64,000 nucleotides of DNA from an uncultured Gammaproteobacteria bacterium. Its GTDB lineage: Bacteria > Pseudomonadota > Gammaproteobacteria > JAURND01. How positions within the stretch are numbered: position 1 is the first letter of the stretch; every line of letters starts with the position of its first letter. Below are positions 5,222 through 37,061 of the stretch, in pieces. The DNA lies in the NCBI GenBank assembly GCA_963797335.1, contig CAWCOU010000006.1, positions 1,148,413-1,212,412 on the forward strand, in the 5' to 3' direction. A program made the position numbers and the translations under genes. The notes under the pieces are model-generated. The model saw only the letters and a list, made by a program, of their open reading frames with translations, did no database searches and was not told the DNA's origin.

Positions 5222-5972
5222 GCTGGATTACCGTGTAACTTTTTCCCGATTAATGAACTCAGTAATCATCTCGCTTCTTTTTGATATTTTTACAAGTATG
5301 TTGCCGGACTAGGAGTCGACCCTAGTACCAGGCGCCCAAACCTTGTGTCTTGCCTAGACGATCTGGCAATAAGTTGCTACGTAAAGCGAAAAATGCACTA
5401 ACAGTTTGCGTGAGAAAATGACAAAAATCAAGGCCTTTATTTCAGCCTACCCGTTTGTTTTCTCGTATGTCTTTGAGAATAGCTGCATGAGGTGAATTAT
5501 TATTTACTATTTTTTAATAAAATTTTGTGCTAAGCAAATTTGTTTGGATACACACCACTTAATAATAACCAGGTCTGATTTCATTGATTATATTCCAAGT
5601 TTTGCCAGTAGCCATGCCCGTATATCTAATTTACGGTATTGATTTTTGATTATGAATCTCGCTCTAAACCATTGATTGATATTTGTGGACAAATGGCTAT
5701 TGTAGATGGTGGAAATAAATACCTTAAGCCAAAAAAATGTTGGGCTAATGTTCTTCAATGATGAACCCGACAAGTTTTTCCGCATGCACAAATTGATGTG
5801 TTCTATTTTCCCGATGATGAGGACGGAAGTATTATCACCTAGGCGCATTCGCAGGCTCTGGACATTTAATGTTCAGTTAACTTTAATTAATTATTATTCG
5901 GATGTTGATATTAGGCGCATTGCAGGACATCTATTGCCAAGTCATACCCTGAATGCATTTTAGATATTTAAT

Positions 5973-6458
5973 TTGAGTATTCTGATGGGTACAGACGAAA
6001 AGTCAATTCAAATACCAGGGTCATCTCCTCCTAAGCCAGTCGAAAATTCCAGCCACAGCCTAGATGAGATGAGTTTCGAGCCTATAATTTCAACCCCGAA
6101 CCCACTGTTCGAGTTAGAATCAGATTGCTCTCTGGCCTCCACTCCGCTCGCTGATCAAGACTCACTATTTGACATTAATCCCCTTTCACCATTGCCATCA
6201 TCAAGTTTATCTCAGGCGTCCACTCCACTACCTGGGGTGAAATCTGGAATTAGCAATCGAAAAAGGGTTATTGCCAGTGAAGTAATCGATTTAGATCCTC
6301 CTCATAAAAGATTATCACCAAAAACTGGAGCTGTATCTCGTGTTTCCAGCACTGGACAGCATCAAGGACTTAGTCAACTAGAATACAGTGATTTAATAAC
6401 ATTGGGCTCTAAAATCCCTATGAGTTTTCAAGAGCTTACTAGAACCCACGTCTATTAG
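5973..6458 (+). CDS. Ser/Pro/Leu-rich intrinsically disordered protein (eukaryote-like; effector candidate)
   Basis: 161 aa low-complexity SPxxP-rich sequence. Lies in an AT-rich block. No known domain recognised. Confidence 0.4.
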   Translation: MSILMGTDEKSIQIPGSSPPKPVENSSHSLDEMSFEPIISTPNPLFELESDCSLASTPLADQDSLFDINPLSPLPSSSLSQASTPLPGVKSGISNRKRVIASEVIDLDPPHKRLSPKTGAVSRVSSTGQHQGLSQLEYSDLITLGSKIPMSFQELTRTHVY

Positions 6459-6711
6459 GCATTATCTATGCCTAACTATTGGATATAGGGCAGAGAAGTC
6501 CATAGGCGCCATTAAATGCTTAAAAGAAGACCAATCGTTGATACCTTGGCTCGCAGAAAAATATGATTACTTGGCTTCATAAAGCTTCAGCAAGCCTGCT
6601 TCTTTCATTATGAGCCTAGGCTTGTTGTGGAGCTTCGGTTGAATTACTACATGCTTGCCTTGCTTTTGAATGGTAGCTAATTTTGAACTAGCCCTCGAAT
6701 TTCTAATAGAT

Positions 6712-6747
6712 GAGGCCCATGTGGAGGCCCAAGTCGAGGCCCAAGTG
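6712..6747. promoter_or_regulatory. three tandem 12-bp iterons GAGGCCCA(a/t)GT(g/c) ~95 bp upstream of parA: candidate centromere/operator
   Basis: gaggcccatgtg / gaggcccaagtc / gaggcccaagtg read directly. Confidence 0.45.
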
Positions 6748-6839
6748 CTGCATTTATATTAGGCTCGAAGGGCAGTAGCACCCAATAAAGTAACCGTGTA
6801 AAATACTCCCTTATAAAAGACTGCGGGAGACCAAAAATC

Positions 6840-7877
6840 GTGAACTCAAAATATTTGATATGGAATAATAAAGGTGGCGTTGGGAAAACATTTTTGACCT
6901 ACATGTTGTCCGTTGAATATGCATTAACACACCCAGAGGTTGATGTTGTTGTCCTTGATGTTTGCCCTCAATCCAATGTGTCAGAAATGATCCTTGGTGG
7001 GAATGGCAGAGGTGAAGAAAATCTGGCTCGATTGCGAGAAGCCAACCGGACAATTGCTGGATATGTTAAAGAACGTTATGAACGATCGCGTTCGGCAAAA
7101 TTGGGTAATGAAAGCGGATTTTTTGTTGAAACGTCTAGCTATAACAGCAATATGCCAAAAAATTTATATCTTCTACCGGGTGATGTTGATCTGGATATCT
7201 GTTCTGCCATAATTAACTACTTGGGATCGGCGCCAGAGCGAGGAGCATGGAAAAAAAGCAGGTTGCTACTCAATGACCTTGTAGAGTCTTTCGAAACCAG
7301 AAAAGATGCGGACAATAGAAAGCAAATTTTTTTCATTGATTGCAATCCAAGTTTTGCCAATTACACTGAGATGGCTGTTCTAGCATCAAACCGTGTGATT
7401 GTTCCATGTACCGCCGATGCTGCTTCCGTGCGAGGTATAATAAACCTTTTTAAATTAATTTATGGAATCTCTGTTGAAGAAAATAATAAATTAGAAGACA
7501 ATTTGTTCATGGCTTTTAATGAACATAGTAAAGATAATGCTTTATTATTGCCACTTGTACAGCTTTTTGTGCTTAACCGATCAAGAACAAGTGTGAGGGA
7601 TGCAGCCAAGGCATTTAAATCTCATGTTGATAAAATTCGAGGGTTAGCAGACTCTGTAAAGCGTAATCATCCAAGTGTTTTTACGGCGACAAAAGGTGAA
7701 ATGGTTTTAAATGTTAAGGATGGCAATACGCTTGCTTCTATTGTTAATCATGAAGGTCAGGCGCTGAGCAAACTACAACAAAAGAAATACACTATTTATG
7801 AGCAAGAAACTCAGGCCAATAATTCGCAAATAAAGCCGTTGCTTGAAGATTTAAGAGCAATTATTGCCCAATTGTAG
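6840..7877 (+). CDS. parA: ParA/Soj-family partition ATPase
   Basis: Deviant Walker A NNKGGVGKT at the N-terminus, and IDCNPS. GTG start. 345 aa. Confidence 0.8.
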   Translation: MNSKYLIWNNKGGVGKTFLTYMLSVEYALTHPEVDVVVLDVCPQSNVSEMILGGNGRGEENLARLREANRTIAGYVKERYERSRSAKLGNESGFFVETSSYNSNMPKNLYLLPGDVDLDICSAIINYLGSAPERGAWKKSRLLLNDLVESFETRKDADNRKQIFFIDCNPSFANYTEMAVLASNRVIVPCTADAASVRGIINLFKLIYGISVEENNKLEDNLFMAFNEHSKDNALLLPLVQLFVLNRSRTSVRDAAKAFKSHVDKIRGLADSVKRNHPSVFTATKGEMVLNVKDGNTLASIVNHEGQALSKLQQKKYTIYEQETQANNSQIKPLLEDLRAIIAQL

Positions 7878-7936
7878 GTTACCTCTATATCCGCTGCCCA
7901 TAAAATAGGAAAGATTCAAAGCTGGAGGGCTCTCAT

Positions 7937-8365
7937 TTGAAAGTCAATTCGCGTAAAATCAAATCAGAAACTTTGAAAATAATTGAGTTAATTCAAACTA
8001 TTCCTGGTAATAAAATATTAACTCTTGCTGGGAGAACGATTTTCAAAATCGATGTTGATGAGACGGGGAAATTTGGATACGCAAAAGAACATTTGTTGGA
8101 CTTTAAGGTAAAGCTAACAAATGCCTTACGGGAAGGTGGCGGCTTGATTATTCGACAATTTCTAAATGTAAAATTTGAGCATAAGACTCAAAACGGAAAG
8201 CTAATCTGGATTCCAGCTAAGAAAATTTATGGTTTATTTCTAGGTAATAATAGCTTCCGGCTACTTTCAGCGCAGCAAGTGCAAGAAATGTTTCCCATCG
8301 ATTATCAAACAGGTCAACATATTGAAAGTGAACCTGGAATAATATTTTCGACTTTACCCCTGTAA
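7937..8365 (+). CDS. hypothetical protein
   Basis: 142-aa ORF with TTG start, downstream of parA. No recognisable domain. Could be a partition partner, but there is no ParB motif. Confidence 0.35.
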   Translation: MKVNSRKIKSETLKIIELIQTIPGNKILTLAGRTIFKIDVDETGKFGYAKEHLLDFKVKLTNALREGGGLIIRQFLNVKFEHKTQNGKLIWIPAKKIYGLFLGNNSFRLLSAQQVQEMFPIDYQTGQHIESEPGIIFSTLPL

Positions 8366-8369
8366 ATAA

Positions 8370-8430
8370 GTGGGCTGGGGTCACATCTGGATTTGTTCCT
8401 TTTGATGGCACGAATCCAGATTTGACCCCG
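8370..8430. repeat. 60-nt hairpin element (17-bp stem GGGGTCAcATCTGGATT / AATCCAGATtTGACCCC); copy 1 of a dispersed ~40-nt repeat
   Basis: Shares TGGGCTGGGG..CTGGATTT.TTCC(C)TTTTGATGG with 9322..9365. Confidence 0.5.
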
Positions 8431-8482
8431 AATGACTTGATAATTAATTGTTGGTGTAAAAATAAAGGGGGTTGGCCCAAAT

Positions 8483-9265
8483 ATGCGAAAAAAACTACAG
8501 CATGAGGAAAGTTTTTCGCGGTTATATGAACTATTTTTTAGATATTGTCAAAAAATAAACCTGTATTCATGGTGTGAGGATGGTGCAATTAGACGAGCTG
8601 CTAATCAAGCTTACATAAATAGTTTATTTGATTTACCCGGAGAAAAAAAAATTCATATTCCCATGACAATTGAGCAAATATTTCATTTTAACTTTCGAAA
8701 GAAAATGCACGATCTCTTTTGGTTCTTGCAAAAGCTTCAGATTTCCATTAGATTTTTAAAAAATTTTCCTTCAGGCCGTAAGTTTGTCGAAAAAAGTGAA
8801 TACATTAAATATCATATCGAATTTTTTCTTCATAACTTATATGCCGTTGAAGAACGACTTAGTGAATTATATGCCAAAATATACAAAAAAACTGCCATCT
8901 ACGAAGCCAAGGTAGATAAAAATATTAGAAATAAAGTTAACAAATTTTTTAAAAAGAATACTCCTATGAATTATAGGCATGATTTGGTTCATGAGTTCTA
9001 TTCCTATGATACAGAAAAATTAGGTCAGCTCAGTGACCTTGAGATTCAACTTTTAACTGAAAATAAAGAAGTGAGGGAAATATTTAGAGAAGAGGTTCAG
9101 ATCGTAATACCTGAAATAAGAGAAGATCAAGTAAAATATCTTGACAAAATACTTACAGATTTAATAAATTTCATTACCAAGTCTATCTTCGAAAGCAATA
9201 CATTCTTTGATGCTGAAGGAAACTTACAGATTCCAAAATTCGCGCCACTGACTACTGAGACCTAA
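8483..9265 (+). CDS. hypothetical protein bracketed by direct hairpin repeats; has an Rx4H (RHDLVH) HEPN-like motif
   Basis: 260-aa ORF. Motif NYRHDLVHE. No other domain recognised. Confidence 0.45.
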   Translation: MRKKLQHEESFSRLYELFFRYCQKINLYSWCEDGAIRRAANQAYINSLFDLPGEKKIHIPMTIEQIFHFNFRKKMHDLFWFLQKLQISIRFLKNFPSGRKFVEKSEYIKYHIEFFLHNLYAVEERLSELYAKIYKKTAIYEAKVDKNIRNKVNKFFKKNTPMNYRHDLVHEFYSYDTEKLGQLSDLEIQLLTENKEVREIFREEVQIVIPEIREDQVKYLDKILTDLINFITKSIFESNTFFDAEGNLQIPKFAPLTTET

Positions 9266-9321
9266 ATATACCTTTATAATTAGTGGAATGGCGACAAGAT
9301 CCGGCTTTCACCCAAACACAA

Positions 9322-9365
9322 TGGGCTGGGGGGTAAACCTGGATTTATTCCCTTTTGATGGAAAG
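9322..9365. repeat. copy 2 of the ~40-nt repeat (TGGGCTGGGGGGTAAACCTGGATTTATTCCCTTTTGATGG)
   Basis: Direct-orientation match to 8377..8416, just before the att core. Confidence 0.45.
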
Positions 9366-9435
9366 CCCGGAAATTATACAAAACATTGAGTTGAGAAAGT
9401 GCTCAGATCGCACTTATGTAAGTCTATGATTTTAC

Positions 9436-9480
9436 TGGTGGGCCGTCCGCGACTCGAACGCGGGACCAACGGATTAAAAG
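9436..9480 (-). other. 45-nt 3' portion of tRNA-Lys(UUU) (anticodon loop to CCA) lacking the 5' half: att core of the integrative element
   Basis: The reverse complement reads CTTTTAATCCGTTGGTCCCGCGTTCGAGTCGCGGACGGCCCACCA. That gives anticodon UUU, T-arm CCGCG-TTCGAGT-CGCGG and acceptor 3' strand+ACCA. No complementary 5' acceptor, D-arm or 5' anticodon-stem strand is present. Confidence 0.6.
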
Positions 9481-9623
9481 TCTCGCAACCCATCATTTTA
9501 TCTATATTGGTAATCTATAATTAATGTTGATTTTTCAATATGTTATCTGTAATATGCCTCTCATCAACTTAGACGAAATTTGATCAAATTTGACCTATTT
9601 AGTAGCAACCCAGTAGCACCATC

Positions 9624-10844
9624 ATGGAGATGCCAATGTCCTCTAGCCTCAATAAACTGAACTTCACCAAACCTGTTTTAAATTCACTGCCGCTGCCAGA
9701 ACATAATAATAAGAAGAGCTATTACTATGACTCTAAAACACATGGGCTCGGCATCAGAGTCACGAGTACTGGATATAAAACTTTTGTTGTTTATCGCAAA
9801 GTAAATGGCAAACCAGAGCGTATTAATTTAGGACGCTACCCTGATCTCTCTATTGAACAGGCTCGTAACAAAGCTATGGAAATTAATGGAGCAATCGCAC
9901 AAGGCGAAAACCCCAATGACAAGCGGCGCTCAGAACGAGCGGAGATAACTTTAGGAGGTTTATTCCACGAATATATGGAACGTCATTCCAAGCTTTGTAA
10001 AAAAACGTGGAAAGAAGATGAGTATCGATTTAAATTACATTTATTCCATTGGAACGACAAAAAAATATCCCAGATCACAAAAGCTGATATTCAGGAACTA
10101 CATGCCAAAATGGGTAAAACTCGTAAAGTTGCAGCGAATCATGTGCTTGCATTGCTCAGCATTATGTATAACAAAGCTGTTATATTTGGCTTATGGAATA
10201 AACCTAATCCTGTATTAGGTATAAAAAAATTCAAGGTAGCATCACGTGATCGTTTTTTACAGTCTGAAGAGTTGCCTCGCTTCTTTGAGGCATTAGCTAA
10301 AGAGCCTAATGAAACTATTCGAGATTATATCTTGCTGTCAATATTAACTGGAGCGCGTCGCTCCAACTTGCTTGCCATGAAGTGGGAGGAAATAAGTTTG
10401 GAACGTGCCGAGTGGCGCATCCCTGTAACGAAGAACGGCGATCCGCAAATTGTTACATTATCGGAAGAGGCTATAACCATTCTAAAACGGCGCAAAGAAA
10501 CTGCCAACAGTCCTTATGTGTTTCCTGGCAATGGTCGGACTGGACATTTAATGGAACCTAAGAAAGGTTGGTGGCGTATACTCAACAACACAGGGATTAA
10601 AAACTTGTGGATACATGATTTACGCCGCACCCTGGGCAGTTGGCAAGCAAAAACAGGCGCATCTTTAACTATTATTGGAAAATCTCTTAATCATAAGTCG
10701 CCCCAGACTACAGCCATTTATGCGCGATTAGATCTTGATCCGGTGCGTGCTTCAGTTGATAGAGCAACTGACGCTATTTTAACGGCTGCTGGATTAAAGC
10801 AGGCAGAAAAAGCGGAGACTAGTTCATTGAGTGAAATAAAATAA
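9624..10844 (+). CDS. int: P4-type tyrosine integrase (DUF4102 arm-binding N-domain + catalytic domain)
   Basis: N-terminus KSYYYDSKTHGLGIRVTSTGYKTFVVYRK. C-terminus HDLRRT...TTAIYARLD (H-x-x-R...Y). The start could be 9624, 9630 or 9636. Confidence 0.9.
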   Translation: MEMPMSSSLNKLNFTKPVLNSLPLPEHNNKKSYYYDSKTHGLGIRVTSTGYKTFVVYRKVNGKPERINLGRYPDLSIEQARNKAMEINGAIAQGENPNDKRRSERAEITLGGLFHEYMERHSKLCKKTWKEDEYRFKLHLFHWNDKKISQITKADIQELHAKMGKTRKVAANHVLALLSIMYNKAVIFGLWNKPNPVLGIKKFKVASRDRFLQSEELPRFFEALAKEPNETIRDYILLSILTGARRSNLLAMKWEEISLERAEWRIPVTKNGDPQIVTLSEEAITILKRRKETANSPYVFPGNGRTGHLMEPKKGWWRILNNTGIKNLWIHDLRRTLGSWQAKTGASLTIIGKSLNHKSPQTTAIYARLDLDPVRASVDRATDAILTAAGLKQAEKAETSSLSEIK

Positions 10845-10970: not shown

Positions 10971-11900
10971 TTATGCTAATACCGGTGTCAAGGCTGCGCC
11001 GCTGTAGAAATAGGATTTAACATTCTGTAAAACCAGATTCAGCATCTTAATTCGGGTTTCGATCGTAGCGGTTCCGATGTGCGGCAGTGTCACAATGTTG
11101 TCCAATCTTAGAAAGTCCTCTTGGATATGAGGTTCATTTTGATATACATCCAATCCTGCGCCGGCAATGGTTTTGTCTCTTAAACAGGCTATTAAATCAT
11201 CTTCATTAACCGTTATCCCTCTCGACACGTTAATTAAAAAGCCTTTTTGGTCTAAAGCTTTCAGTATGTTCATGTCGATAATATGTTTAGTCTCTTGTCC
11301 GCCGGTACAGGAAACTACCAGAAAATCAGAAGCTCTTGCCATTTCTTCCAGGCTGCCATAATAAGAATAAGGCACATCCCTTTTGGTTCGGTTGTGGTAA
11401 ATGACCTTCAACCCAAAAGCGGCTGCTCTTTCTGCTATGCGCGTACCTATTTTACCAAGACCTAGAATACCTAATGTTTTGCCGAAAACGCATGTGCCTA
11501 AAGGGGCTGGAACGGTCTTCCAGTTGCCGGACTTCATATGCTGAATGCTGCCAACTACATTTCTTGCCAGCATCAGCAATAAGATTAGAGCTGTATCGGC
11601 AGTATCTTCAGTCACCACATCTGGGGTATTGGTTATGATAACACCTTTCTTTGCAGCAGCCTTCCGATCAACGCAGTCAATGCCTGTGCCAAAACAGCTA
11701 ATAATTTGAAGATTCGGCAATTTCGAGATTAATGCTTCATCCACCTTTACCCAGGGAGTAGCCAGAATACCTTTGATGGAGTGTTCATGCTGATTAAGAC
11801 TGTCTACAGGGATAAAGTTAAAAGTATCTGCAAATGGCTCAATAGTTGAATCAAAAAAATTACTCATGGAAAGGATATCAATTCGTTCCTGTTTATTCAT
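10971..11900 (-). CDS. D-isomer-specific 2-hydroxyacid dehydrogenase (glyoxylate/hydroxypyruvate reductase-like)
   Basis: GxGxxG NAD-binding motif LGILGLGKIGTRIA. Catalytic His in TLPHIG. Confidence 0.8.
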   Translation of the reverse strand: MNKQERIDILSMSNFFDSTIEPFADTFNFIPVDSLNQHEHSIKGILATPWVKVDEALISKLPNLQIISCFGTGIDCVDRKAAAKKGVIITNTPDVVTEDTADTALILLLMLARNVVGSIQHMKSGNWKTVPAPLGTCVFGKTLGILGLGKIGTRIAERAAAFGLKVIYHNRTKRDVPYSYYGSLEEMARASDFLVVSCTGGQETKHIIDMNILKALDQKGFLINVSRGITVNEDDLIACLRDKTIAGAGLDVYQNEPHIQEDFLRLDNIVTLPHIGTATIETRIKMLNLVLQNVKSYFYSGAALTPVLA

Positions 11901-12829
11901 GCGGGTATTCTCATTAAATTGGTTGAGTTGAATATCTTTGAGGCAATGGAGCCGATAATCAGGTTCAATACTGCAAAAAGAACCACCGGCAAGGTGCCGA
12001 TCATGCCAATAATCTGGATCGTCAATAAAATGCCCAATACGCCGTCAAATGTGCCGACCTCAAAAGACATCGCCACAGAATTTTCCCAGCTGGAGTTAAT
12101 CAGTCTTGAAAACAAGAAGCCTAATGACAGAAATAAAGTAATTAAACCGGCGCAGATAATAGGCAAGCCTATATTCAATCTCAGTATGGTATCGGCATGT
12201 TGTGACAATATGGCTGCAATGATAATGGAAACCGATAAAATTCCTATTGAAGGAATAACGGGTTTCAACTTATCTATTTTTTGGGGGAAAAAGTAAGCCA
12301 ATGCCATGCCGACCAGCATGGGGATGGCAATACCGCTTACGATAGTTAACATGACGACACTGAACTGAATATGCACAATCTTGTGTAGCAGAACAAAAAT
12401 AATGACGGGTGTGACCAATGGAGATAATAAAGCCCCGGTAATGGTGGTGGTAATAATCATGGCCGTATTGCCTCTTGCCAGGTAGCACATGATGTTCCCG
12501 GTATTAGCGGCAGGACAGCAAGTCAGAGTTACTAATCCTACGATGTATTCTGTGGGCAACTTGGCTAGAGAGCAGATAAGAAACGTGGAAAGCGGCGCAA
12601 TGGCATATTTAAATGCTAGAGTGCTAAAGATTAATTTTTTATTGTAAAAAACGTTTTTGTAATTCTGAGGTTTTAAGGTAAGTCCAACGCAAAAAGCGAT
12701 CAGAGACAACATGGGATGAACCATGCTGCTCGTCCAATAGATGTATTTAGAAAAAAACAAACCAATCAGTGAAAAAATCAGAAGCGTAGCTAAAAAATGT
12801 CTTTCTATCAAGTTCATTGAGTTTTTCAT
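11897..12829 (-). CDS. polytopic membrane transporter (BASS/AEC-like Na+-dependent permease; family uncertain)
   Basis: 310 aa with ~9 TM helices. Start overlaps the downstream gene by 4 nt, suggesting an operon. Confidence 0.45.
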   Translation of the reverse strand: MKNSMNLIERHFLATLLIFSLIGLFFSKYIYWTSSMVHPMLSLIAFCVGLTLKPQNYKNVFYNKKLIFSTLAFKYAIAPLSTFLICSLAKLPTEYIVGLVTLTCCPAANTGNIMCYLARGNTAMIITTTITGALLSPLVTPVIIFVLLHKIVHIQFSVVMLTIVSGIAIPMLVGMALAYFFPQKIDKLKPVIPSIGILSVSIIIAAILSQHADTILRLNIGLPIICAGLITLFLSLGFLFSRLINSSWENSVAMSFEVGTFDGVLGILLTIQIIGMIGTLPVVLFAVLNLIIGSIASKIFNSTNLMRIPA

Positions 12830-12843
12830 AAAAAATCTCCATT

Positions 12844-13869
12844 TTATTTTTTCCTAGATGAAATACATACAAACTCCGGCAAGGTTTGAATGCTATTTTC
12901 TTGAGATATGTGGTCTCTGATTTTAGAAATGATACTGTCCATTTCGTCTTCTGTCGCAAGATTTTTTTCAATATATCTGCTGGCACATTCAGAAGTAATC
13001 ATTTCGAGCCAGGATTTCTCCAGCTTTGAAACACCTATGCCATGATATATAAACGCTTTAAAATCGGTCAATTTATTTGTGCTGTACAGATGATGATATA
13101 ACTTATGGCCTATATTAAAATCTAATCCCAGACCTTCTCCCAGCTTAATATACAGATCAATCGCTTTTTGGGTTTCCGCTATCTCAGGATAAGCGAAAAA
13201 TGAGCTTAGAATGGGTTCCATACATACGATAATGCCGTTTTCAGGTAATAAATCGATAGCCATCTTTAATACGCCCGTCGGGTTTTTAAGATGGTGCAAA
13301 AAACAGCGCATATATATCAGATCAACCGGCTTGTTAATGGGAGCTGCTCTGGAATTGATTTCAGTTCTGATAATTTCGATGTTCTTGATATTCAGCGCAC
13401 TAGCACGCCTTTCAGTCAATGATGTCTGCTCGTATCCTTTATCTATGGCGTAAACCTTACCGTTATCACCTACGAATTCCGCCAACCAGCACGACATTGC
13501 GCCAGTTCCACAAGCAAACTCAGCTACATGCATACCTTTTTGGATACCCGCCGCTTTAAGATACTGTATGGTCGTTTCATTAAGCATCTTATTGAGTAAA
13601 TTGTCTCTGGGGACTTCTCCATAGTGAAGTACGTATTTATTGATTTCTTCGTGTTCAACTCCAGCCAATAGCCAACTATCCGATACATCGAGCAACTCAG
13701 CATACCTTTTGGCTGTTTTTTGATTAAGGGGGTTTCGTCCAGATTCGTGAGCGGTATAAGTAGAAGGGGTCAATTGGAATTTTTCATAGAATTCCTTGGC
13801 AGTATGGTAGCCTGCTTGGATCCTCGCTTGTTTTAAACGCAGCCCTGTTTTGTTAATCGTTTCAGTCAT
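12844..13869 (-). CDS. fusion protein: N-terminal XRE-type HTH + class I SAM-dependent methyltransferase
   Basis: HTH: LRLKQARIQAGYHTAKEFYEKFQLTPSTYTAHESG. Methyltransferase motif I: VAEFACGTGAMS. Confidence 0.7.
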   Translation of the reverse strand: MTETINKTGLRLKQARIQAGYHTAKEFYEKFQLTPSTYTAHESGRNPLNQKTAKRYAELLDVSDSWLLAGVEHEEINKYVLHYGEVPRDNLLNKMLNETTIQYLKAAGIQKGMHVAEFACGTGAMSCWLAEFVGDNGKVYAIDKGYEQTSLTERRASALNIKNIEIIRTEINSRAAPINKPVDLIYMRCFLHHLKNPTGVLKMAIDLLPENGIIVCMEPILSSFFAYPEIAETQKAIDLYIKLGEGLGLDFNIGHKLYHHLYSTNKLTDFKAFIYHGIGVSKLEKSWLEMITSECASRYIEKNLATEDEMDSIISKIRDHISQENSIQTLPEFVCISSRKK

Positions 13870-13952
13870 TGCTCATTCCTAAGTGTAAACCTCACAATAC
13901 TTTATAACATATTATTTGAAAAATAAAGTATTGACTCTGGAATAATACCAAT

Positions 13953-13979
13953 ATACTATTATATATAGTATAATAGTAT
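13953..13979. promoter_or_regulatory. 11-bp inverted repeat ATACTATTATA-N5-TATAATAGTAT in the divergent promoter region
   Basis: Perfect palindrome overlapping a TATAAT-like box, 75 bp upstream of the HTH-methyltransferase gene. Confidence 0.4.
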
Positions 13980-14154
13980 TTATATTATAATGCTGACTTG
14001 AACGACTATTTTGCTAAAAATGTCCTTTCAAAATCCACCAGGCGCGCATAGTCGTTTAATTAGCCAGAAAGAAATCTTAACGTGTACTGTCAACATCTTA
14101 AACTAGATTTTTGCAAGTTCTTAATCAGGACTATCAGAAAACAAGGAGGTGACC

Positions 14155-14931
14155 ATGTTAGCTCTTCCGTGCGATCTCGAAGTAACTATGGTAGATAAAG
14201 TTACAAACAACCCCACTCAAACATTGATTAGAATCGTTGATAATGCTCGGCATTTATTAGAGCAGATGAATCAAATCATTTTCATTAAAGACCTCTTTTT
14301 CCGATATATCGATTGCAATAAAAAGTTAGTCGATTTTTCAAGGTTAAATCATAAAAAGCGGATAATTGGCCAAGAAGATTACGGTTTACCTTGGGCCGAG
14401 GATACGGAATTTTATAGAAAAATCGATAAAGATGTTTTAAATGGTCATGAAATGAAAATACTTATGGCGGTTAGGGTCGCGTCTGGGGAAAAAATCTGTG
14501 CCATCCAGAATAAAAAAGCAATAAAAGATCCTCATACCGGGGAACCTATTGGCATCGTAGCAAGTATGACGGAAATCCAAGATGCTTCCATTAACGAGTT
14601 TTTGCAAAACATAAAAGCCAAAGATGCTCAAATCCTATCAGATGTAGGGCGAATACCTTTAAATTATCCTATCAAACATCCCGATAAATACAATTTTACA
14701 ACCAGAGAGTTTGAATGCCTCTTTTATACGCTGCGAGGACACACTTGCAAAATGATAGCCGACATTTTAAAAATATCGCCAAGAACGGTCGAAAAGTTTA
14801 TTTGGGGCATCAAACATAAAATGGGATGCACCTATAAAACGGAATTGATTGAAAAATCCATCAAAGACGGATTGATCGATCTAATACCGCCCAGCATCAA
14901 CATTCATGGCGTGAATGTCTATATGAAATAA
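14155..14931 (+). CDS. LuxR/GerE-family transcriptional regulator with N-terminal PAS-like sensor region
   Basis: C-terminus TTREFECLFYTLRGHTCKMIADILKISPRTVEKFIWGIKHKMG. The ATG at 14155 is preferred over the track start 14149 (RBS aaggagg). Confidence 0.65.
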   Translation: MLALPCDLEVTMVDKVTNNPTQTLIRIVDNARHLLEQMNQIIFIKDLFFRYIDCNKKLVDFSRLNHKKRIIGQEDYGLPWAEDTEFYRKIDKDVLNGHEMKILMAVRVASGEKICAIQNKKAIKDPHTGEPIGIVASMTEIQDASINEFLQNIKAKDAQILSDVGRIPLNYPIKHPDKYNFTTREFECLFYTLRGHTCKMIADILKISPRTVEKFIWGIKHKMGCTYKTELIEKSIKDGLIDLIPPSINIHGVNVYMK

Positions 14932-14942
14932 GGAGAATTATT

Positions 14943-15878
14943 ATGTCCATAGCAAAAATAATTGGAAAAATTTGTCTGTCACAGCAGCAATTAACCGTTC
15001 TGTCCAGTTTAGGCGTTGACTACATAGCTGCGGACAATCCGAAGTCTCGCTCAGATGAAAATGAAATAATGGGGCGGATCGGAGATGCAGAAGCCATTAT
15101 TATCAATATATCAATTCATATTACTGAAAATATCATACAGAAGTGTAAAAATTTACGCTTTATTCAGACCTGGTCAACCGGTATGGATAATATTGATATA
15201 GCTGCCGCACAAGCCGCCGGTATTATCGTAAAAAATGTACCGGATTTTTCGGTAGAGGCTGTAGCTGAGAAGACGATGGCGTTAATGATGTTTATAGCGA
15301 ATAGAATAAGAGAGGCCAACCAAGACGTACTCAAAGGTAACTGGAATTACCAAGGTTTTCAGGGAGTAGAACTCAAAAATAAAACATTGGTCGTTATAGG
15401 ATCAGGAAGGATTGGAATTAGAGTTGTGGAATTAGCGCAGGCGTTTGGTATGAGAGTACTAGCTGCGAACTCCAAAACAGATAAAAACAACTTAAAAGAT
15501 ATGTGTTCAGAAGCCGATTTTATCACGCTGCATTGCCCTCTGAATGAAAAAACACGCTACCTGTTAAGTGGTGAAGAATTTAAGATCATGAAAAAAGGCG
15601 TTTATCTTATTAATGCTTCCCGAGGCGGTGTTGTGGATGAATCTGCACTTTTAAAAGCACTTGAAAATGAAACTGTCGCTTATGCAAGTCTTGACGTTTT
15701 AGAACAGGAACCTCCCGCTTCCGATAACCCTTTAATTTGTCACCCAAAGGTTTTTGTTACTCCTCACACCCTGTGGCACACAAAAGAATCCGTTGATAGA
15801 CTTACAGAGCATTGCATTCAAAATTTGGCGCAATATATCACCAAAACCAGAAGCGTTTCAGAAAATTGTAGAGTTTGA
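14943..15878 (+). CDS. D-isomer-specific 2-hydroxyacid dehydrogenase (PGDH-like), paralog of 10971..11900
   Basis: LVVIGSGRIGIRVV (GxGxxG). ASLDVLEQEP. HTLWHT. Confidence 0.8.
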   Translation: MSIAKIIGKICLSQQQLTVLSSLGVDYIAADNPKSRSDENEIMGRIGDAEAIIINISIHITENIIQKCKNLRFIQTWSTGMDNIDIAAAQAAGIIVKNVPDFSVEAVAEKTMALMMFIANRIREANQDVLKGNWNYQGFQGVELKNKTLVVIGSGRIGIRVVELAQAFGMRVLAANSKTDKNNLKDMCSEADFITLHCPLNEKTRYLLSGEEFKIMKKGVYLINASRGGVVDESALLKALENETVAYASLDVLEQEPPASDNPLICHPKVFVTPHTLWHTKESVDRLTEHCIQNLAQYITKTRSVSENCRV

Positions 15879-17108: not shown

Positions 17109-17141
17109 TTATTCAGAGCAAAAATGAGGAGAGATTCCTAC

Positions 17142-17570
17142 ATGATGATTAGAAAGACAGTTATTTTCTTGTTGGCATTATTTGTATCAACTGACTTATT
17201 GGCCTCTGAGGCCAACATGCAGACTGGTAGGTATCTTAGTGTTACAAACAAGCCATTGCATGAGCAACAAGACTTATTGTCACAAATCTATCAAGTACAT
17301 TTTCCGAAGGAGGTTCAAACCGTTGGCGATGCCATACGTTATCTGCTGCATTACAGCGGTTACAGCCTGGTCGATGAGGCGCATCAAACAGATGCGTTAA
17401 AAAATACATTAACTAAACCATTGCCGCTCATTGATCGCAATTTCGGCCCCATGAGTTTACGAGATGCTTTAGTCACGCTGGCTGGGCCTGCCTTTACCTT
17501 AATGAGTGACTCACTCAATCGTGAAGTGAATTTCAAATTAAAGCCGAATGTAGTTTGGCAGAAAGGATAG
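17142..17570 (+). CDS. pilL: PilL-like lipoprotein/secretin-N (STN-like) protein; first gene of the GI-type T4SS operon
   Basis: Signal peptide MMIRKTVIFLLALFVS. GRY..V...PLHEQQDLLSQI..V.FP..VQTVGDA...LL..SGYSL...LP...R..GP.SLRDAL..L, the pattern of PFGI-1-class PilL. ATG at 17142 preferred over track start 17124. Confidence 0.5.
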   Translation: MMIRKTVIFLLALFVSTDLLASEANMQTGRYLSVTNKPLHEQQDLLSQIYQVHFPKEVQTVGDAIRYLLHYSGYSLVDEAHQTDALKNTLTKPLPLIDRNFGPMSLRDALVTLAGPAFTLMSDSLNREVNFKLKPNVVWQKG

Positions 17571-17576
17571 ACAGAC

Positions 17577-18236
17577 ATGACAACACTACCTGATGAGCCT
17601 GATAAATTGCCACGATGGCAATTTTTTAAACGCCTTTGGTGCGGAAGTAATCAAAAACTATATTTGATCTATATTGTGTTTTCTATCTTTGTATTGATGG
17701 TCGGTGTCATTGTCCTTTTCGATAATTTGTACAGAACTGAACAAAGTGCAAATTCTGTAGATCATCGTAGTTTGGTCATGCTAAGTCAGCTTCATGACTT
17801 ACGCGGACAATTACAACAAATAGCAGATAACACAAATAATCCAGCGACTATTCGCAATACAATTTCTTCTCTGACAGGTGAATTGGATAAAATTGAAAAA
17901 GCCGTTTCTGACAACGCTAAAACTTCTGATGTAAAGAAAGTCAGCGATCAATTGGTGACCGTTCAATCAGATTTGTCCGATTTGGAAAAAATTATTTCTA
18001 CTCAGTTCAATACAAAAAAATATATGGATGCCAAAGGATTACCGTTCCAAGTGAACCATCTGGATATGATTTCAGGCCAACCTTTTGTTTCGGTCGATTA
18101 CGACCACCACATCACTCCCTTGGGCATTGGCGACTCTCTCAACGGCTGGACACTGAGCGCAGCAGATTATGCAGGCCAAGCCGTAGAATTTTCCAATACG
18201 CAAGGTCAATACGTCAAAATTAATCTGGCAATCTGA
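17577..18236 (+). CDS. ICE conjugation-operon protein, N-terminal TM + coiled coil
   Basis: 219 aa, one TM helix. Operonic with the T4SS genes. Confidence 0.5.
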   Translation: MTTLPDEPDKLPRWQFFKRLWCGSNQKLYLIYIVFSIFVLMVGVIVLFDNLYRTEQSANSVDHRSLVMLSQLHDLRGQLQQIADNTNNPATIRNTISSLTGELDKIEKAVSDNAKTSDVKKVSDQLVTVQSDLSDLEKIISTQFNTKKYMDAKGLPFQVNHLDMISGQPFVSVDYDHHITPLGIGDSLNGWTLSAADYAGQAVEFSNTQGQYVKINLAI

Positions 18237-18238
18237 TT

Positions 18239-19027
18239 ATGAAAAACGCTATTCAATTAAATTGTACAAAGCCGCGCATAGTCGTCTTGACACTGTGCTT
18301 GATTTGCAGTTTTTCAGCCTGGGCAAATGATGTAGTAAACACTCAGGAGCAATCTACCACCACCGCCACTACTCAGGATAAAACCGTGATAAACGGTACA
18401 GCTCAGGATTGGCAGTTATCCGATGCAGAGTGGCAACATTATTTGCAGCTAATGCACGGTGCGGATGGCTTGTGGTATGCACATCTTTCACCACCCTCGG
18501 TATTGGGAATGCGCGCGGACACTGTTGAAGAACGGCAGCACTTTGCACAAATAGTAGCGAAACAAGAACACGATAAAGTCGCACGTGAATTAGCTTTTAA
18601 TCATTCAGTATGGTTGGCAATGCGCGAGTTGTATCCCGATGAGCTGATGATTAAAGACTTTGATAAAACACCGTTTAATCCAGGGAAAGCAAAAAATACG
18701 ACTGTTTCCTTACAAGCAGGCGATCGCTTAGCGTTATTTGAAAACACAACACGCGCCGATGTGGCCGTTCTCCCGAAACTGTTAGGTTTATTACAAACCA
18801 ATCCGGGCGTAAATCTTGACATCTATTGTATCGGTAACGTGAATGACAATGTGATTCGCCAATGGGCTGGCACACATCAAATACCCACTCCATTAGTGGA
18901 ATCCGGTCGCATTACTTTAAATCTGGATAAGGGACATTTAGCCAAAATTGTCACCAATCCTCAACTGCCTTATTTAGTGCTGATAAGACAAGGACAGGCC
19001 AAACCGGTTTCCGTCTGGGATTTGTAA
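18239..19027 (+). CDS. secreted PFGI-1-class ICE protein
   Basis: Signal peptide VVLTLCLICSFSAWA. 1-nt spacing from the neighbouring genes. Confidence 0.5.
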   Translation: MKNAIQLNCTKPRIVVLTLCLICSFSAWANDVVNTQEQSTTTATTQDKTVINGTAQDWQLSDAEWQHYLQLMHGADGLWYAHLSPPSVLGMRADTVEERQHFAQIVAKQEHDKVARELAFNHSVWLAMRELYPDELMIKDFDKTPFNPGKAKNTTVSLQAGDRLALFENTTRADVAVLPKLLGLLQTNPGVNLDIYCIGNVNDNVIRQWAGTHQIPTPLVESGRITLNLDKGHLAKIVTNPQLPYLVLIRQGQAKPVSVWDL

Positions 19028-19750
19028 ATGGCGACCGCGAAACCTGCCGAAAAAGTATCGCGTAGAAGACGTGGTATACCAGGTATGTTGATCGCGTTAA
19101 GTTTCAATACTTTATTAATGGGTTTACTAGTTTGGTTTTTATTATTAGTCAGTTTTGGGTGTTATCGCCTGACTCATCCAGCTGTGGATGTATATGAGCA
19201 TCTCAAAACCATAGCAAGCCCTAATGTCATTTTTTTACAACAAAGCCGACTGTTTCATCGCGAGAGTCAGCGATGGCAAGGCTGGATTCAGGGCATAAAT
19301 GGGCAAATACAGTCCAGTGGAGAGTCAAGTCTATTGAGCGGGAAAATAAAAGAAATGAAATATAAGTTTCCATATTTACAAAAAATTATTGGGAATCAAT
19401 GGAATAAAGTAAAGCAAGAAACGCTTCCTTTGATTACTGGCGTAACTGCCATCGTTGTTACACGGATTTTAGCATTATGCCTGTCTATCCCGTTATTTTT
19501 GTTGTGTGTGGCTTTAGGTTTTGTGGATGGATTAGTGCAGCGAGACATCAGAAGATTTCAGGTGGCACGTGAGAGCGCGTTGTTGTTTCACGAGTTAAAA
19601 CGAAGCAGTGCTTTCTGGTTTTATCTACCACTGTTTATTTATCTACTGTTGCCGTACCCGCTGTCACCGCAATGGTTCTTAATGCCGATGGCTATTACTT
19701 TAGGAGTCTTGGTTCAGTTGAGTACCAGGTCGTTTAAAAAATACGTATGA
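19028..19750 (+). CDS. ICE integral membrane protein (PFGI-1-class conjugation module)
   Basis: 240 aa, 4-5 TM helices. Translationally coupled to its neighbours. Confidence 0.5.
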   Translation: MATAKPAEKVSRRRRGIPGMLIALSFNTLLMGLLVWFLLLVSFGCYRLTHPAVDVYEHLKTIASPNVIFLQQSRLFHRESQRWQGWIQGINGQIQSSGESSLLSGKIKEMKYKFPYLQKIIGNQWNKVKQETLPLITGVTAIVVTRILALCLSIPLFLLCVALGFVDGLVQRDIRRFQVARESALLFHELKRSSAFWFYLPLFIYLLLPYPLSPQWFLMPMAITLGVLVQLSTRSFKKYV

Positions 19751-19760
19751 GAAACGCATC

Positions 19761-20129
19761 GTGAGCAGATTAAAAAAGATTCTACCGATAGTTTTATTTT
19801 TCATAACCGGTAGCAGTTTGGCTTCTCAAGAGCAAGAACGCATTTATTTGGTGCAATTAATGAACCAGCTGGATGCCATGACGCCTATGGTTTTAGCGGC
19901 CGAGCGAGAACAGCCGAAGAATTTGCGAGTGCAGTTTCATTACAGCACTTGGCGCGACAATAAAGGGCAACTGCATAACGGTTTGCTGGAAGATATTAAT
20001 GACATTAAAGCGGGTATTCGTCAGAAACTCAACGATACCACGATAGAGCCACGTGCAATCAACCCTGTTTTAGGCGATTACCTGGATAAAAATAAATCGG
20101 TATCGGCCACCCATGATGACAACCAATAG
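19761..20129 (+). CDS. RAQPRD-family-like ICE protein (divergent motif EREQPKN)
   Basis: Signal peptide. Pattern L..QL..L....A...Q.....R..F.Y..........L..D...I..GI matches the RAQPRD family. Confidence 0.5.
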   Translation: MSRLKKILPIVLFFITGSSLASQEQERIYLVQLMNQLDAMTPMVLAAEREQPKNLRVQFHYSTWRDNKGQLHNGLLEDINDIKAGIRQKLNDTTIEPRAINPVLGDYLDKNKSVSATHDDNQ

Positions 20130-20355
20130 TGCTTTAGAAGCATTGCAAATTGCTGCCGGAGTATCGCCGGGAAAAGTGAGTTTAACCATACGCACTATTT
20201 TGTTAACTCTGATCTTCGTATGGGCTGCTGCCTGTGTGTACAGCAAAATCCATCACTTTCGTCATCACGATGTGGATATGTTTGATGCACACAGACAATT
20301 GCTGCGAATTTTGTTCATCGTCGCTATTGCCGTTGCTCTAGTATTTATCAGTTAA
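20113..20355 (+). CDS. small 2-TM ICE membrane protein
   Basis: 80 aa. Overlaps the previous gene. Confidence 0.45.
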   Translation: MMTTNSALEALQIAAGVSPGKVSLTIRTILLTLIFVWAAACVYSKIHHFRHHDVDMFDAHRQLLRILFIVAIAVALVFIS

Positions 20356-20374
20356 TTTATTTGGGAGTCAAACT

Positions 20375-20743
20375 ATGTTTAGCCACTATATACAAAAAAT
20401 CAAATACGGATTTTATTTCTTATTGATTAATGTGATGACATCGCCGGTCTGGGCTGATTTACCTAAACCTCCAGATAGCGACATTACTCAGGATGGCACT
20501 ACCGACTGGATTGATGTGGGCGGCCATCTAACCTATAAGACTTTAAGTTATGCGTTAATTGCTTTAGGAGCAATGATTGTTGCCGGCAGCGCCTTCGGTA
20601 TCTTTAAAGCCTATCATGCAGCTCAGGAAAAGCAGGATTTAGGGCATTTTTTCAAACATTCGGCTGTCTCGGTTGCTGCTGCCGCGATCGGCGCGGGTTT
20701 GTTGTTCGCCGGTTATACAATTATCCCACACGTGGACGGCTAA
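20375..20743 (+). CDS. ICE membrane protein, pilin/VirB2-position (signal peptide + 2 TM)
   Basis: 122 aa. AMIVAGSAFGIFKAY...AAAAIGAGLLFAG. Confidence 0.45.
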   Translation: MFSHYIQKIKYGFYFLLINVMTSPVWADLPKPPDSDITQDGTTDWIDVGGHLTYKTLSYALIALGAMIVAGSAFGIFKAYHAAQEKQDLGHFFKHSAVSVAAAAIGAGLLFAGYTIIPHVDG

Positions 20744-20758
20744 GATAGGAATTTCAGA

Positions 20759-21106
20759 ATGTTACTCAATCTGATTAATCACAAAATGCCGATTTACAAA
20801 GATTGTACGCTGTTTGAATTACTGATTGTGAGTTGCGGCTATTTGATTCTAGGCGGCATTTCTTTATCTCTGCTCAGTTGGCTGTTGACAGGTTTTGCAT
20901 CCATTGGCTTTGCGTTGATCTTAATTACCTTGGTTCATAGCACTCGTTTCTTACTTGGTCGCCTGCAACGATTGAAATACGGAAAACCGTATGGATATTA
21001 CCAGCAGCTTTTTCTAAAACAGGTTATGCAGACTTCCTGGCTTGGTTCCCTTTGGAAAACCCGGCTTATTACTCGAACTGGACGCTGGTCAATCAGGAGA
21101 ATGTAA
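20759..21106 (+). CDS. ICE membrane protein, VirB3-position
   Basis: 115 aa, 2 TM. Confidence 0.45.
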   Translation: MLLNLINHKMPIYKDCTLFELLIVSCGYLILGGISLSLLSWLLTGFASIGFALILITLVHSTRFLLGRLQRLKYGKPYGYYQQLFLKQVMQTSWLGSLWKTRLITRTGRWSIRRM

Positions 21107-21733: not shown

Positions 21734-21746
21734 AGGAGATGCTGAC

Positions 21747-28045: not shown

Positions 28046-28278
28046 GGCAAGAAGCTTATACCTGCCCATATAAAATTCACCACTTTTGTTCTGAAGATTA
28101 TTGATACATTTGAATTTAACTATTTTTACAATAGATTTTGGCTTTCATGATTACGAGAATCATAAACGTCAACGAATATCACGAAATCCTTTTTCTGAAT
28201 TTATCGTCGATTTATTGCGGATTATTTTAGCGCAATATTTTATTGCACAAAAATGTTATCAAAATAGTGAACCAAATT

Positions 28279-35661: not shown

Positions 35662-35853
35662 TTACTCGGGTACTATTCTGCAATTTATTTTATAGATTTA
35701 CGACAATACTAAATATATAGTTTATTGTAGAGTTTTTAATAAAATTTCCGCAAATTTTCTTCTGGTGAAACTGGCATTGGTATCTTAGCCGCCATATAAT
35801 AGAGCCATTGTTCTGAGAGTTGTTCATTGATAATAACTATAGGGGGACTGTTT

Positions 35854-36204: not shown

Positions 36205-36263
36205 TGTGTTAAGAACATTTGTGGTAAAGAATTCAGTTAAAATAGATATGTTATAAGTCGTTT

Positions 36264-36974: not shown

Positions 36975-37000
36975 CTTCAGTTTTCCGCGTAGTGAAATCA

Positions 37001-37040: not shown

Positions 37041-37061
37041 TTTTATTGATAAGGAGGAAAT

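Follow-up and report, generated by a model that had tools for sequence, protein, structure and literature searches.

The 47 nt at positions 9436–9482 of the window (the whole 64,000-nt stretch of DNA analysed here) are best explained as the displaced 3′ part of a chromosomal tRNA-Lys(UUU) gene, which marks the integrase-proximal attR of one integrated ICE extending at least 58.6 kb rightward; the probability of this reading is put at roughly 85 %. The junction would be an ordinary attR, and an intact tRNA-Lys gene should lie beyond the right end of the window. Any single island integrated in a tRNA gene leaves such an orphan 3′ fragment at the end away from its regenerated tRNA, the regenerated tDNA and the displaced fragment mark the two island ends, and the anticodon-centred site is used by about half of 3,919 islands (PMC4383910). 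The initial annotation had posed a choice between the attP of an episome and the junction of a tandem array. That choice left out the simplest case, the orphan fragment of a single tRNA-integrated island (PMC4383910), and neither of its branches is supported by the one-sided arm-type sites, the layout common to 57 of 60 integrase-family loci or the records of the genes on a 1.29-Mb contig.

The tRNA-Lys fragment and its integrase

The description of the minus strand of 9436..9480 as a tRNA-Lys from the anticodon loop to CCA proved exact, the true match being two bases longer. When aligned with two ARAGORN-called tRNA-Lys(UUU) genes of A. baumannii (locus L005), positions 9482..9436 (minus strand) are identical at 46 of 47 sites, corresponding to tRNA positions 30–76, and the lone mismatch (A69G) lies in the acceptor stem. 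The 45-mer is present as a single copy in the window (no others at ≤3 mismatches; 0 of 100 shuffles), a local-alignment scan of the window detected no second copy of the core (best other score 13/51), and the viral contig collection contained no match to the 45-mer.

The absence of a 5′ half, noted in the initial annotation, was confirmed by three approaches. The alignment to A. baumannii tRNA-Lys revealed no tRNA 5′-half likeness in the window upstream of tRNA position 30, ARAGORN called zero tRNAs in the whole window, and Rfam reported no tRNA at the gathering score in the window and none at E≤10 within 9300–9700. Rfam also gave no match in the tail of L003.

The gene adjoining the core (9624..10844, plus strand) encodes a tyrosine integrase whose assignment to the P4 type is borne out by the Pfam domains Arm-DNA-bind_3, Int_N and Phage_integrase; it comprises 406 aa when read from 9624, while the public gene call (P0001), which starts at 9636, comprises 402 aa and is 100 % identical. 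The fragment lies antisense to int and 141–153 nt upstream of it (143–155 nt before the ATG as measured in the family comparison). Two of the marks by which Islander defines a tRNA-integrated island are present, namely a tyrosine integrase inside the island near its end and a displaced 3′ piece of tDNA whose start coincides with a standard sublocation (the anticodon loop); the third, an intact cognate tRNA gene in the same orientation at the other end, is predicted for the window ICE and present in six relatives.

The arrangement is a family trait. An orphan tRNA 3′ segment, antisense to int and 132–217 nt before its ATG, was found in 57 of 60 related integrase loci, with 14 anticodons represented among the fragments, and an intact tRNA adjoins int in none of them. 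The closest relatives with flanks, L006 (Lys-CUU) and L008 (Asn-GUU), share the layout of the window. A scan of genome contigs for the integrase returned a single locus (L001), which belongs to a MAG, lacks an att and has an int disrupted by a frameshift. In six loci (L015, L036, L038, L041, L058 and L060) an intact cognate tRNA is located 7–10 kb away, on the far side and on the same strand, and the repeat starts at tRNA position 30–31, as in the window, where identity to tRNA-Lys sets in at position 30, two bases short of the anticodon loop. Because 57 of the 60 loci are alike and six possess the intact tRNA at the far end, the orphan fragment is read as attR. The earlier identification of this stretch (45–47 nt) as an att core of tRNA-Lys origin is correct.

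The sequence between the core and int (9483..9623, plus strand), which constitutes the element-side P arm and the int upstream region, can be aligned with the corresponding regions of L006 and L008 despite their differing cores. It includes two tandem 8-mers at 9602..9620 (GTAGCAAC at 9602–9609 and GTAGCACC at 9613–9620, plus strand) with an 11-nt period, which are candidate arm-type Int-binding sites. A tandem of the same period precedes the int ATG by 20–55 nt in 39 of 64 family loci (the window included). In the six complete relatives, the tandem (GTA(A/G)C...) occurs on both arms, recurring within the island 45–87 nt from its other end, whereas the flank outside has none. The tandem in the window (GTAGCAnC) is found on the int side only: it is the sole one in the window-equivalent interval −1123..68043, and none occurs within 300 nt to the left of the core.

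A plausible history begins with a circular ICE whose attP core reproduced tRNA-Lys from its anticodon loop through to CCA. Binding the core through its catalytic domain and the tandem GTAGCA(A/C)C arm sites through Arm-DNA-bind_3, the P4-like Int would have joined attP to the tRNA gene by recombination at the anticodon-loop sublocation, the presumed position of the crossover. The ICE-borne 3′ part would then have regenerated the tRNA at the far end, and the original 3′ part, joined to its native downstream flank (window positions below 9436), would have been left beside int. Excision would proceed by recombination between the two 47-nt repeats, and the element may well be mobile at present. 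Right of the core, neither a tRNA nor a second arm-site tandem was found up to window-equivalent 68043; since the far end is not reached within this interval, the intact tRNA-Lys and its position beyond the window are predicted rather than seen.

The conjugative element to the right of the core

The region adjoining int (10971..15878) is a cargo cluster in which Pfam identifies 2-hydroxyacid dehydrogenases, an SBF transporter, an HTH-methyltransferase and a LuxR-type regulator, and it shares 83 % nucleotide identity with a block beside the tRNA-Asn-targeted int of L008. It is followed by the mating-pair formation genes of an MPF_G/PFGI-1-class type IV secretion system (17124..31232, plus strand), recognized by Pfam (DUF4400, RAQPRD, DUF3487, DUF2895, DUF3438, TraC_F_IV, TraU and TraG_N) and, above the cut-offs, by NCBIfam (TIGR03759, 03746, 03749, 03752, 03755 and 03744). 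The coupling protein TraD is encoded at 31841..33871 (plus strand; TIGR03754, 824 bits against a cut-off of 648). These seven NCBIfam matches bear out the presence of a PFGI-1/pKLC102-class conjugation system right of the core. A megablast search of the T4SS region against plasmids gave no match.

The putative relaxase gene (33886..34977, plus strand), a candidate of MOBH type (Pfam TraI_2 at 49 bits, cut-off 23.9), is short and divergent: its product falls below the NCBIfam cut-offs (MobH, 83 against 200 bits; ICE_TraI_Pfluor, 82 against 161) and is 27 % identical to pKLC102 MobH over 172 aa, with a length of 363 aa against 639 aa. Downstream, genes for ICE maintenance and anti-restriction (34987..43433, plus strand; Pfam and PADLOC similarities) encode an AcaB-like regulator, a MazG-like protein, SSB, DUF3275, a DUF6094 methyltransferase and an SNF2 helicase. 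The remaining DNA (44952..64000), which presumably also lies inside the ICE, contains a 714-aa ORF without known identity, KfrA_N and DUF551, followed by low-GC cargo with an IS, and runs off the window. A block at 51.3–68.0 kb is linked to a related int in L006 too, at approximately 73 % identity, the same as for int itself.

The left flank and competing readings of the junction

The flank to the left of the core (5222..9435) is interpreted not as an ICE end but as host DNA that followed the original tRNA-Lys gene on its downstream side. It holds five ORFs on the plus strand, including a solitary ParA-family ATPase. Genes for DedA and a GT9 glycosyltransferase (Pfam) lie 4 kb left of the core, and a search with the GT9 protein for an ICE-free relative or empty site yielded nothing above 39 % identity. 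Neither PADLOC nor NCBIfam assigned a function to the left-flank ORFs, and none of the left-flank genes was found in the fetched integrase-family loci (80 from the metagenome scan together with L001 and L006–L008).

The initial annotation placed a parA module beside the core, which holds insofar as a ParA-superfamily ORF of 345 aa is present at 6840..7877 (plus strand; Pfam). This is not a Soj-type boundary gene. Its product shows no significant similarity to pKLC102 ParA, with the Walker A motif alone in common, no ParB gene is paired with it, and homologues occur as solitary genes in ordinary chromosomal settings or in prophages, the nearest being single genes among housekeeping genes. Homologues 55–83 % identical are spread across phyla, from Gallionella to Campylobacter, and copies of approximately 59 % identity adjoin the repressor gene (the cI position) in lambdoid prophages. 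At the left edge of the 4.2-kb segment, a short search with a lax filter returned a sub-threshold tRNA-like sequence (5301–5368), which the whole-window scan did not recover. A T-arm regex match near 6660–6692 was rejected as an AT-rich chance occurrence.

An older decayed insertion in this flank is possible, given its unannotatable ORFs, horizontally mobile ParA-like gene and tRNA-like edge. The fuller proposal, in which the ParA-like gene is not a partition gene but a mobile exclusion or defence ATPase and the 4.2-kb segment is what remains of an earlier island in this hotspot, is rather improbable as a whole. It is also unlikely that the core is a fossil junction, which arose as attR and whose ICE has since lost its tRNA-proximal end, or become detached from it, through a deletion or inversion, leaving a trapped element and a partnerless fragment. 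Such a history would fit the lack of a partner tRNA within 58.6 kb, the IS at 57351–58466, the frameshifted int of the relative L001, and the inversion of the 51.3–68.0-kb block relative to int in comparison with L006, whose junction is occupied by genes of IS3 and of a group II intron. The inversion indicates that the element was rearranged at some point, but the ORFs for int, the T4SS, the coupling protein and the relaxase are all intact, and since elements of this class often exceed 60–100 kb (pKLC102, 103.5 kb), the missing end within 58.6 kb is unremarkable.

The tandem array put forward earlier, in which the core would join the ICE to a second, decayed tRNA-Lys-targeted element at 5.3–9.4 kb, is very unlikely. 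Islands in tandem at one tRNA are documented (PMC4383910, PMC3864950), and the 4.2-kb segment does combine ORFs without known function, a ParA-family gene with homologues also in prophage immunity regions and the tRNA-like sequence at its left edge. However, each member of an array should carry its own int and its own fragment (PMC4383910), whereas the left flank shows no integrase remnant and the window as a whole contains only the one Lys fragment. Moreover, arm-type sites are missing where the int-distal arm of a sibling should abut the core, the segment has the same GC content as the more distant left flank (0.374 against 0.380), and the nearest relatives of the ParA-like gene are, as noted, single genes amid housekeeping genes.

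That the window derives from, or keeps, a circular form, with the left flank as the far end of the ICE itself, is barely credible: ParA and Int do flank attP in pKLC102/PAPI-1-type circles (PMC6945700) and the short-read assembly does break inside the core, but the genes on either side are each recorded on a megabase-sized contig, DedA and GT9 genes lie close by, the left flank lacks the arm tandem borne by the far arm of all six complete relatives, its genes are absent from the fetched family loci, the ParA-like protein is unrelated to that of pKLC102 and the polarity of the core relative to int is opposite to that of the pKLC102 attP.

The contig in question is 1,290,392 bp long, and int (P0001), the ParA-like gene (P0121), a 260-aa ORF (P0122) and the GT9 gene (P0242) are each recorded on it. 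In an independent short-read assembly of the same run, ERR11523675, one contig (L004) ends at 9482 and another (L002) starts at 9453, with a 30-nt overlap, so linkage across the core rests on the deposited contig. The break is taken only to indicate that the sample contains the core more than once. Its use as read evidence for attB or attP was dropped; the sample looks metagenomic (contig numbers above 1.2 million), and the branch could come from the tRNA-Lys genes of other organisms.

Relationship to known tRNA-integrated elements

As attR of a single island, the junction corresponds to the displaced 3′ tDNA fragment of the anticodon-centred ('A') site class (Williams 2002; Islander, PMC4383910), which it resembles in extent, orientation and the adjacent tyrosine integrase; as in such islands, the six complete relatives of the window integrase have a regenerated tRNA at the other end. 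According to a review, int beside an intact tRNA is a frequent arrangement (PMC2704930), whereas the window int lies at the fragment end, a position constant in its family (57/60 loci); in all essentials the junction agrees with this class.

The pKLC102/PAPI-1/PFGI-1/ICEPae1161/PsICE family uses the same tRNA-Lys(UUU) segment as att core. In pKLC102 the att site does contain exactly this part of tRNA-Lys, and the element is bounded by ParA on one side and by MobH-Int on the opposite side (NC_019202.1; PMC6945700). The RefSeq record used for the comparison (NC_019202.1, a copy of AY257538) opens with the segment between anticodon loop and CCA in reverse complement, 33 of 47 positions being identical to the window core, and the published tRNA-Lys att repeats of pKLC102-type ICEs measure 48 bp (PMC6945700) and 52 bp (PMC10945833). 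The classification of the window element as a pKLC102/PAPI-1/PFGI-1-class ICE stands with regard to the MPF_G T4SS gene set and the tRNA-Lys core, a repeat of the ~45–52-bp type running from the anticodon loop to CCA. Window TraC is 35 % identical to pKLC102 TraC over 97 %, with 35–37 % identity to the TraC proteins of pKLC102 and ICEHin1056, and the window relaxase may, like that of pKLC102, be MOBH-type (Pfam TraI_2; the 172-aa alignment to MobH given above). The classification fails with regard to Int, core polarity and ParA. The window integrase, P4-like with an arm-binding domain, is unrelated to pKLC102 Int beyond a 22-aa motif (BLASTP, E 0.011). While pKLC102 int is the last gene of a mobH-int operon, the window int is directed from the core into the element and separated by 23 kb from the relaxase gene, with no homologous Int closing a relaxase-int operon. 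The anticodon-loop end of the core faces int in the window but parA in pKLC102. Finally, no ParA/ParB/DnaB/TopB module was found in 9.6–68 kb (Pfam, most ORFs ≥100 aa; precomputed Pfam for 51–68 kb), a stretch that stops short of the true far end; the family has an operon headed by ParA(Soj) on the side away from int.

The repeat of ICEclc comprises 18 bp from the 3′ end of tRNA-Gly, and its int adjoins the tRNA gene; in contrast, the window repeat is 47 nt long, from the anticodon loop to CCA, and int lies beside the displaced fragment. The two elements are alike in having a P4-family int (IntB13 in ICEclc) that reads inward from the extremity, in the cargo that separates int from the core genes, and in their T4SS of MPF_G type (PMC2704930).

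The Legionella islands LGI-1 and LGI-2 share with the window ICE a low-GC host, a GI-type T4SS and a tRNA repeat, a likeness by description rather than by comparison of lgi sequences, and their tRNAs are Thr, Met, Arg and Pro as against Lys in the window (PMC3864950). The direct repeats of Legionella GI-T4SS islands are the last 37–48 bp of the tRNA, the integrase of LGI-1 is conserved beside attR, and the LGI integrases are unrelated to those of PAPI-1 and ICEHin1056 (PMC3864950). LGIs are reported to lack a recognizable relaxase (PMC3864950), whereas the window ICE has a TraI_2/MOBH-like gene.

The integrase of the window ICE, although unrelated to theirs, thus targets the tRNA-Lys segment of pKLC102 and PAPI-1, with reversed polarity, and the combination of tRNA-Lys with a GI-type T4SS is therefore insufficient for filing an element in the PAPI-1 family. 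The ICE itself is a previously undescribed, deeply branching MPF_G element in an uncultured low-GC bacterium. The fragment sets one exact boundary of this element (9482/9483), which matters chiefly for annotation, and predicts the place and look of the other. For the integrase family a rule emerges, in which int lies ~130–220 nt from a displaced fragment to which it is antisense and, in many members (39/64), GTA(A/G)C tandem arm sites with an 11-nt period stand just upstream of int; this rule tells attR, attL and attP apart from sequence alone.

The tRNA-Lys segment and its integrase family

The sequence at 9436..9480 (minus strand), CTTTTAATCCGTTGGTCCCGCGTTCGAGTCGCGGACGGCCCACCA, can be parsed into a UUU-bearing anticodon loop and the 3' side of its stem, a variable loop, the whole T-arm, the 3' side of the acceptor stem, the discriminator A and CCA. 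No further copy of this 45-mer occurs in the window at up to three mismatches, and shuffled sequence never produced one. When the core region was compared with the plasmid collection by megablast, the match was confined to the core stretch and came from four A. baumannii records, catalogued as plasmids and 1.0-4.1 Mb long, where ARAGORN called two tRNA-Lys(UUU) genes. Alignment to this tRNA-Lys showed identity from tRNA position 30 to 76, except for A69G, over 47 nt (9482..9436), and no tRNA-like sequence upstream of position 30. ARAGORN called no tRNA in the whole window, and the Rfam tRNA model gave no match in the window at the gathering score and none in 9300-9700 at E≤10. The orphan 3' half lacking a 5' half, proposed in the initial annotation, is thus confirmed; the 45 nt named there are present, although the actual core is two bases longer.

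The adjacent P4-like integrase gene (plus strand, 9624 or 9636 to 10844) encodes Arm-DNA-bind_3, Int_N and Phage_integrase domains. Its nearest homologues with available flanks, in loci L006 (75 % identical) and L008 (71 %), lie ~180 nt downstream of antisense orphan 3' halves of tRNA-Lys(CUU) and tRNA-Asn(GUU), respectively, with unrelated genes on the outer side of the fragment. When metagenome contigs were searched with an alignment built from 14 members of the family, 80 further loci were retrieved. A T-arm-to-CCA segment on the strand opposite to the integrase was present in 57 of the 60 loci (L006 and L008 included) that have 260 nt or more of sequence ahead of the gene; the distance from anticodon loop to integrase ATG was 132-217 nt across loci (143 or 155 nt in the window), 14 anticodons were represented, and in none of the loci did ARAGORN find an intact tRNA at the integrase-proximal fragment. 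Many of these contigs begin within or just past the fragment, as an assembly break at a repeat. In this set (L012-L091) the integrases belong to a single family, 46-67 % identical to the window protein, which occurs beside displaced 3' pieces of 14 or more tRNA isoacceptors, always with the anticodon-loop-to-CCA segment and with constant geometry between integrase and fragment.

In six loci the cognate tRNA is present intact as well, sharing the strand of the fragment and lying 7.0-10.2 kb away on the far side of the integrase. The repeat in these complete islands runs from tRNA position 30-31 to CCA, and the window fragment begins at the same position. In one of them (L058), a compensatory T-stem pair distinguishes the displaced copy from the regenerated one. 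Islands of this kind are bounded on one side by the regenerated tRNA and on the other by its displaced fragment (PMC4383910); throughout this family the integrase lies at the fragment end, as described for Legionella LGI-1 (PMC3864950).

Candidate arm-type sites and the nature of the junction

Two 8-mers of the form GTA(A/G)C..., exactly 11 nt apart, lie just upstream of the integrase gene in 39 of the 64 loci of the family, counting the window; here they are GTAGCAAC at 9602 and GTAGCACC at 9613. In 6/6 complete islands a second copy of the tandem lies next to the intact tRNA, 45-87 nt in from that end of the island, and in all six the outside flank beside the fragment lacks it. Judged from this distribution, the 8-mers behave as arm-type sites on both arms of attP and are candidate sites. 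No tandem was found in the 300 nt left of 9436, which has only AT-rich chance words in common with the integrase-side arm, or elsewhere in -1123..68043 (window coordinates extended into fetched flanks). The initial annotation had proposed either attP of an episomal form or a junction of two tandem elements; since both would place the tandem left of the core, neither is borne out, and the left flank is read as bacterial-side DNA, with the other arm of the ICE predicted beyond 68 kb.

Records of the replicon bear on the episomal option as well. A public protein 100 % identical to the integrase is recorded on a contig of 1,290,392 bp, as are the ParA-like protein, a 260-aa ORF product and the GT9 protein of the left flank; the locus therefore belongs to a large replicon rather than a ~100-kb episome. 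In a separate short-read assembly of the same run (ERR11523675), one contig (L004) ends at window 9482 and another (L002/L003, 58,591 bp) extends from 9453 to 68043. This break within the core is expected of a sequence recurring in the sample, and no more is drawn from it.

We consider it highly probable (roughly 85 %) that the core is an ordinary attR, the integrase-proximal junction of an MPF_G ICE integrated in the chromosome. No tRNA was found in the window or in the 4 kb past its right end; the far end, past 68 kb, is predicted to hold an intact minus-strand tRNA-Lys(UUU) gene with a GTAGCAnC tandem ahead of it.

The left flank and its ParA-like gene

To the left of the core, five plus-strand ORFs (5.7-9.3 kb) follow minus-strand genes for DedA and a GT9 glycosyltransferase. 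One ORF (6840-7877) encodes a 345-aa ParA-superfamily protein, which matches ParA models around the Walker A motif only (41 bits with NCBIfam, where the cut-off is 180). No ParB gene lies next to this solitary ORF, and past Walker A its product has nothing in common with pKLC102 ParA. Homologues 55-83 % identical are found across very distant taxa (Gallionella, Electrothrix, Azospirillum, Campylobacter, Aggregatibacter, Klebsiella and Acinetobacter). In three metagenomic contigs the homologue is a single gene amid ordinary genes (one following mnmE, one flanked by ferritin and ABC transporter genes, one adjoining glycosyltransferases), and in enterobacterial records it adjoins a lambdoid prophage repressor. 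The gene is not represented in PADLOC; it may serve exclusion or defence as a mobile gene rather than act in partition. Reading this gene as an ICE module, as well as the weight placed on the orphan status of the fragment, went too far in the initial annotation, which was right about the core itself.

A decayed older island in this segment is improbable, with nothing positive in its favour: the GC content (0.374 at 5.2-9.4 kb) is level with that of 1-5.2 kb (0.380), -1123..68043 contains no integrase remnant besides the integrase itself, and left-flank genes are found in none of the fetched family loci (80 from the scan plus L001 and L006-L008).

A weak but curious full-length tRNA-like sequence (5301-5368, minus strand; anticodon UGG, no CCA, mismatches in acceptor and anticodon stems) lies at the left edge of this 4.2-kb segment, oriented like the Lys fragment. 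It scored 25.8 bits with the Rfam tRNA model in a 541-nt search (gathering score 29), was not recovered in the whole-window scan and was not called by ARAGORN. A single GTAGCAAC (5380-5373) abuts its 5' end.

Gene content of the ICE and its relation to pKLC102

Rightward, the integrase is followed by a cargo cluster, a complete set of MPF_G/PFGI-1-class mating-pair genes (17-31 kb), TraD, a short TraI_2/MOBH-like relaxase, a group comprising AcaB, SSB, DUF3275, a methyltransferase and an SNF2 helicase, and low-GC cargo with an IS (DDE_Tnp_1 transposase, 57351-58466, plus strand). The T4SS proteins score above NCBIfam cut-offs for 'integrating conjugative element' families, and both the T4SS class and the integrase type had been correctly named in the initial annotation.

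The integrase-adjacent cargo (10843-16167: two 2-hydroxyacid dehydrogenases, an SBF transporter, an HTH-methyltransferase and a LuxR regulator) is 83 % identical to L008 12387-17669, whereas the integrases are only 73 % identical and the targets differ (Lys-UUU versus Asn-GUU), so cargo and integrase have different histories. The DUF6094/Eco57I-like methyltransferase and SNF2 helicase genes (39121-43433, plus strand), with PADLOC similarities to mad2, ZorD, DpdE and DrmD, are probably anti-restriction or defence cargo. A perfect intergenic hairpin with a 16-bp stem (51116-51150, GGGTACCCTGACGGGC gca GCCCGTCAGGGTACCC) lies where GC content falls from ~0.41 to ~0.35. The block from 51278 to 68043 corresponds to L006 17651-21172, where it is linked to the related integrase and inverted relative to it; about 13.5 kb of the block (window 51.5-65.0 kb) is missing there. 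The L006 junction carries genes of IS3 and of a group II intron, which suggests IS-mediated inversion within one of the elements. Within a 3-kb alignment of the two genomes (73 % identity), a ~330-nt noncoding stretch (67712-68043, L003 16610-16941; L006 17651-17967), conspicuously GC-richer than its low-GC surroundings, lies upstream of an operon encoding HamA_HO-like, PAS histidine kinase and response regulator proteins; it has no Rfam match at E≤0.1 and is possibly a structured leader.

The pKLC102 family had been accurately described in the initial annotation: RefSeq NC_019202.1 opens with tRNA-Lys in reverse complement, which runs from CCA to the anticodon loop and matches the core of the window at 33/47 positions; ParA (137-997) comes next, and mobH and int close the record, in agreement with the published 48-bp repeats, a ParA operon at one end and TraI-Int at the other (PMC6945700), or 52-bp repeats (PMC10945833). 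However, the window element departs from that family in the traits by which its integration module is defined: the window integrase is unrelated to that of pKLC102 and, unlike it, points inward, a long way from the relaxase. In the window the core turns its anticodon-loop end towards the integrase gene; in pKLC102 that end is turned towards parA, and there parA rather than int lies beside the displaced fragment. The window TraC is only 35-37 % identical to those of pKLC102 and ICEHin1056, and the relaxase shares 27 % identity with that of pKLC102 over its N-terminal half. In conjugation and target choice the window element resembles a PAPI-1-type ICE, with an integration module of another kind. 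It is previously undescribed, and new only as a further, divergent member.
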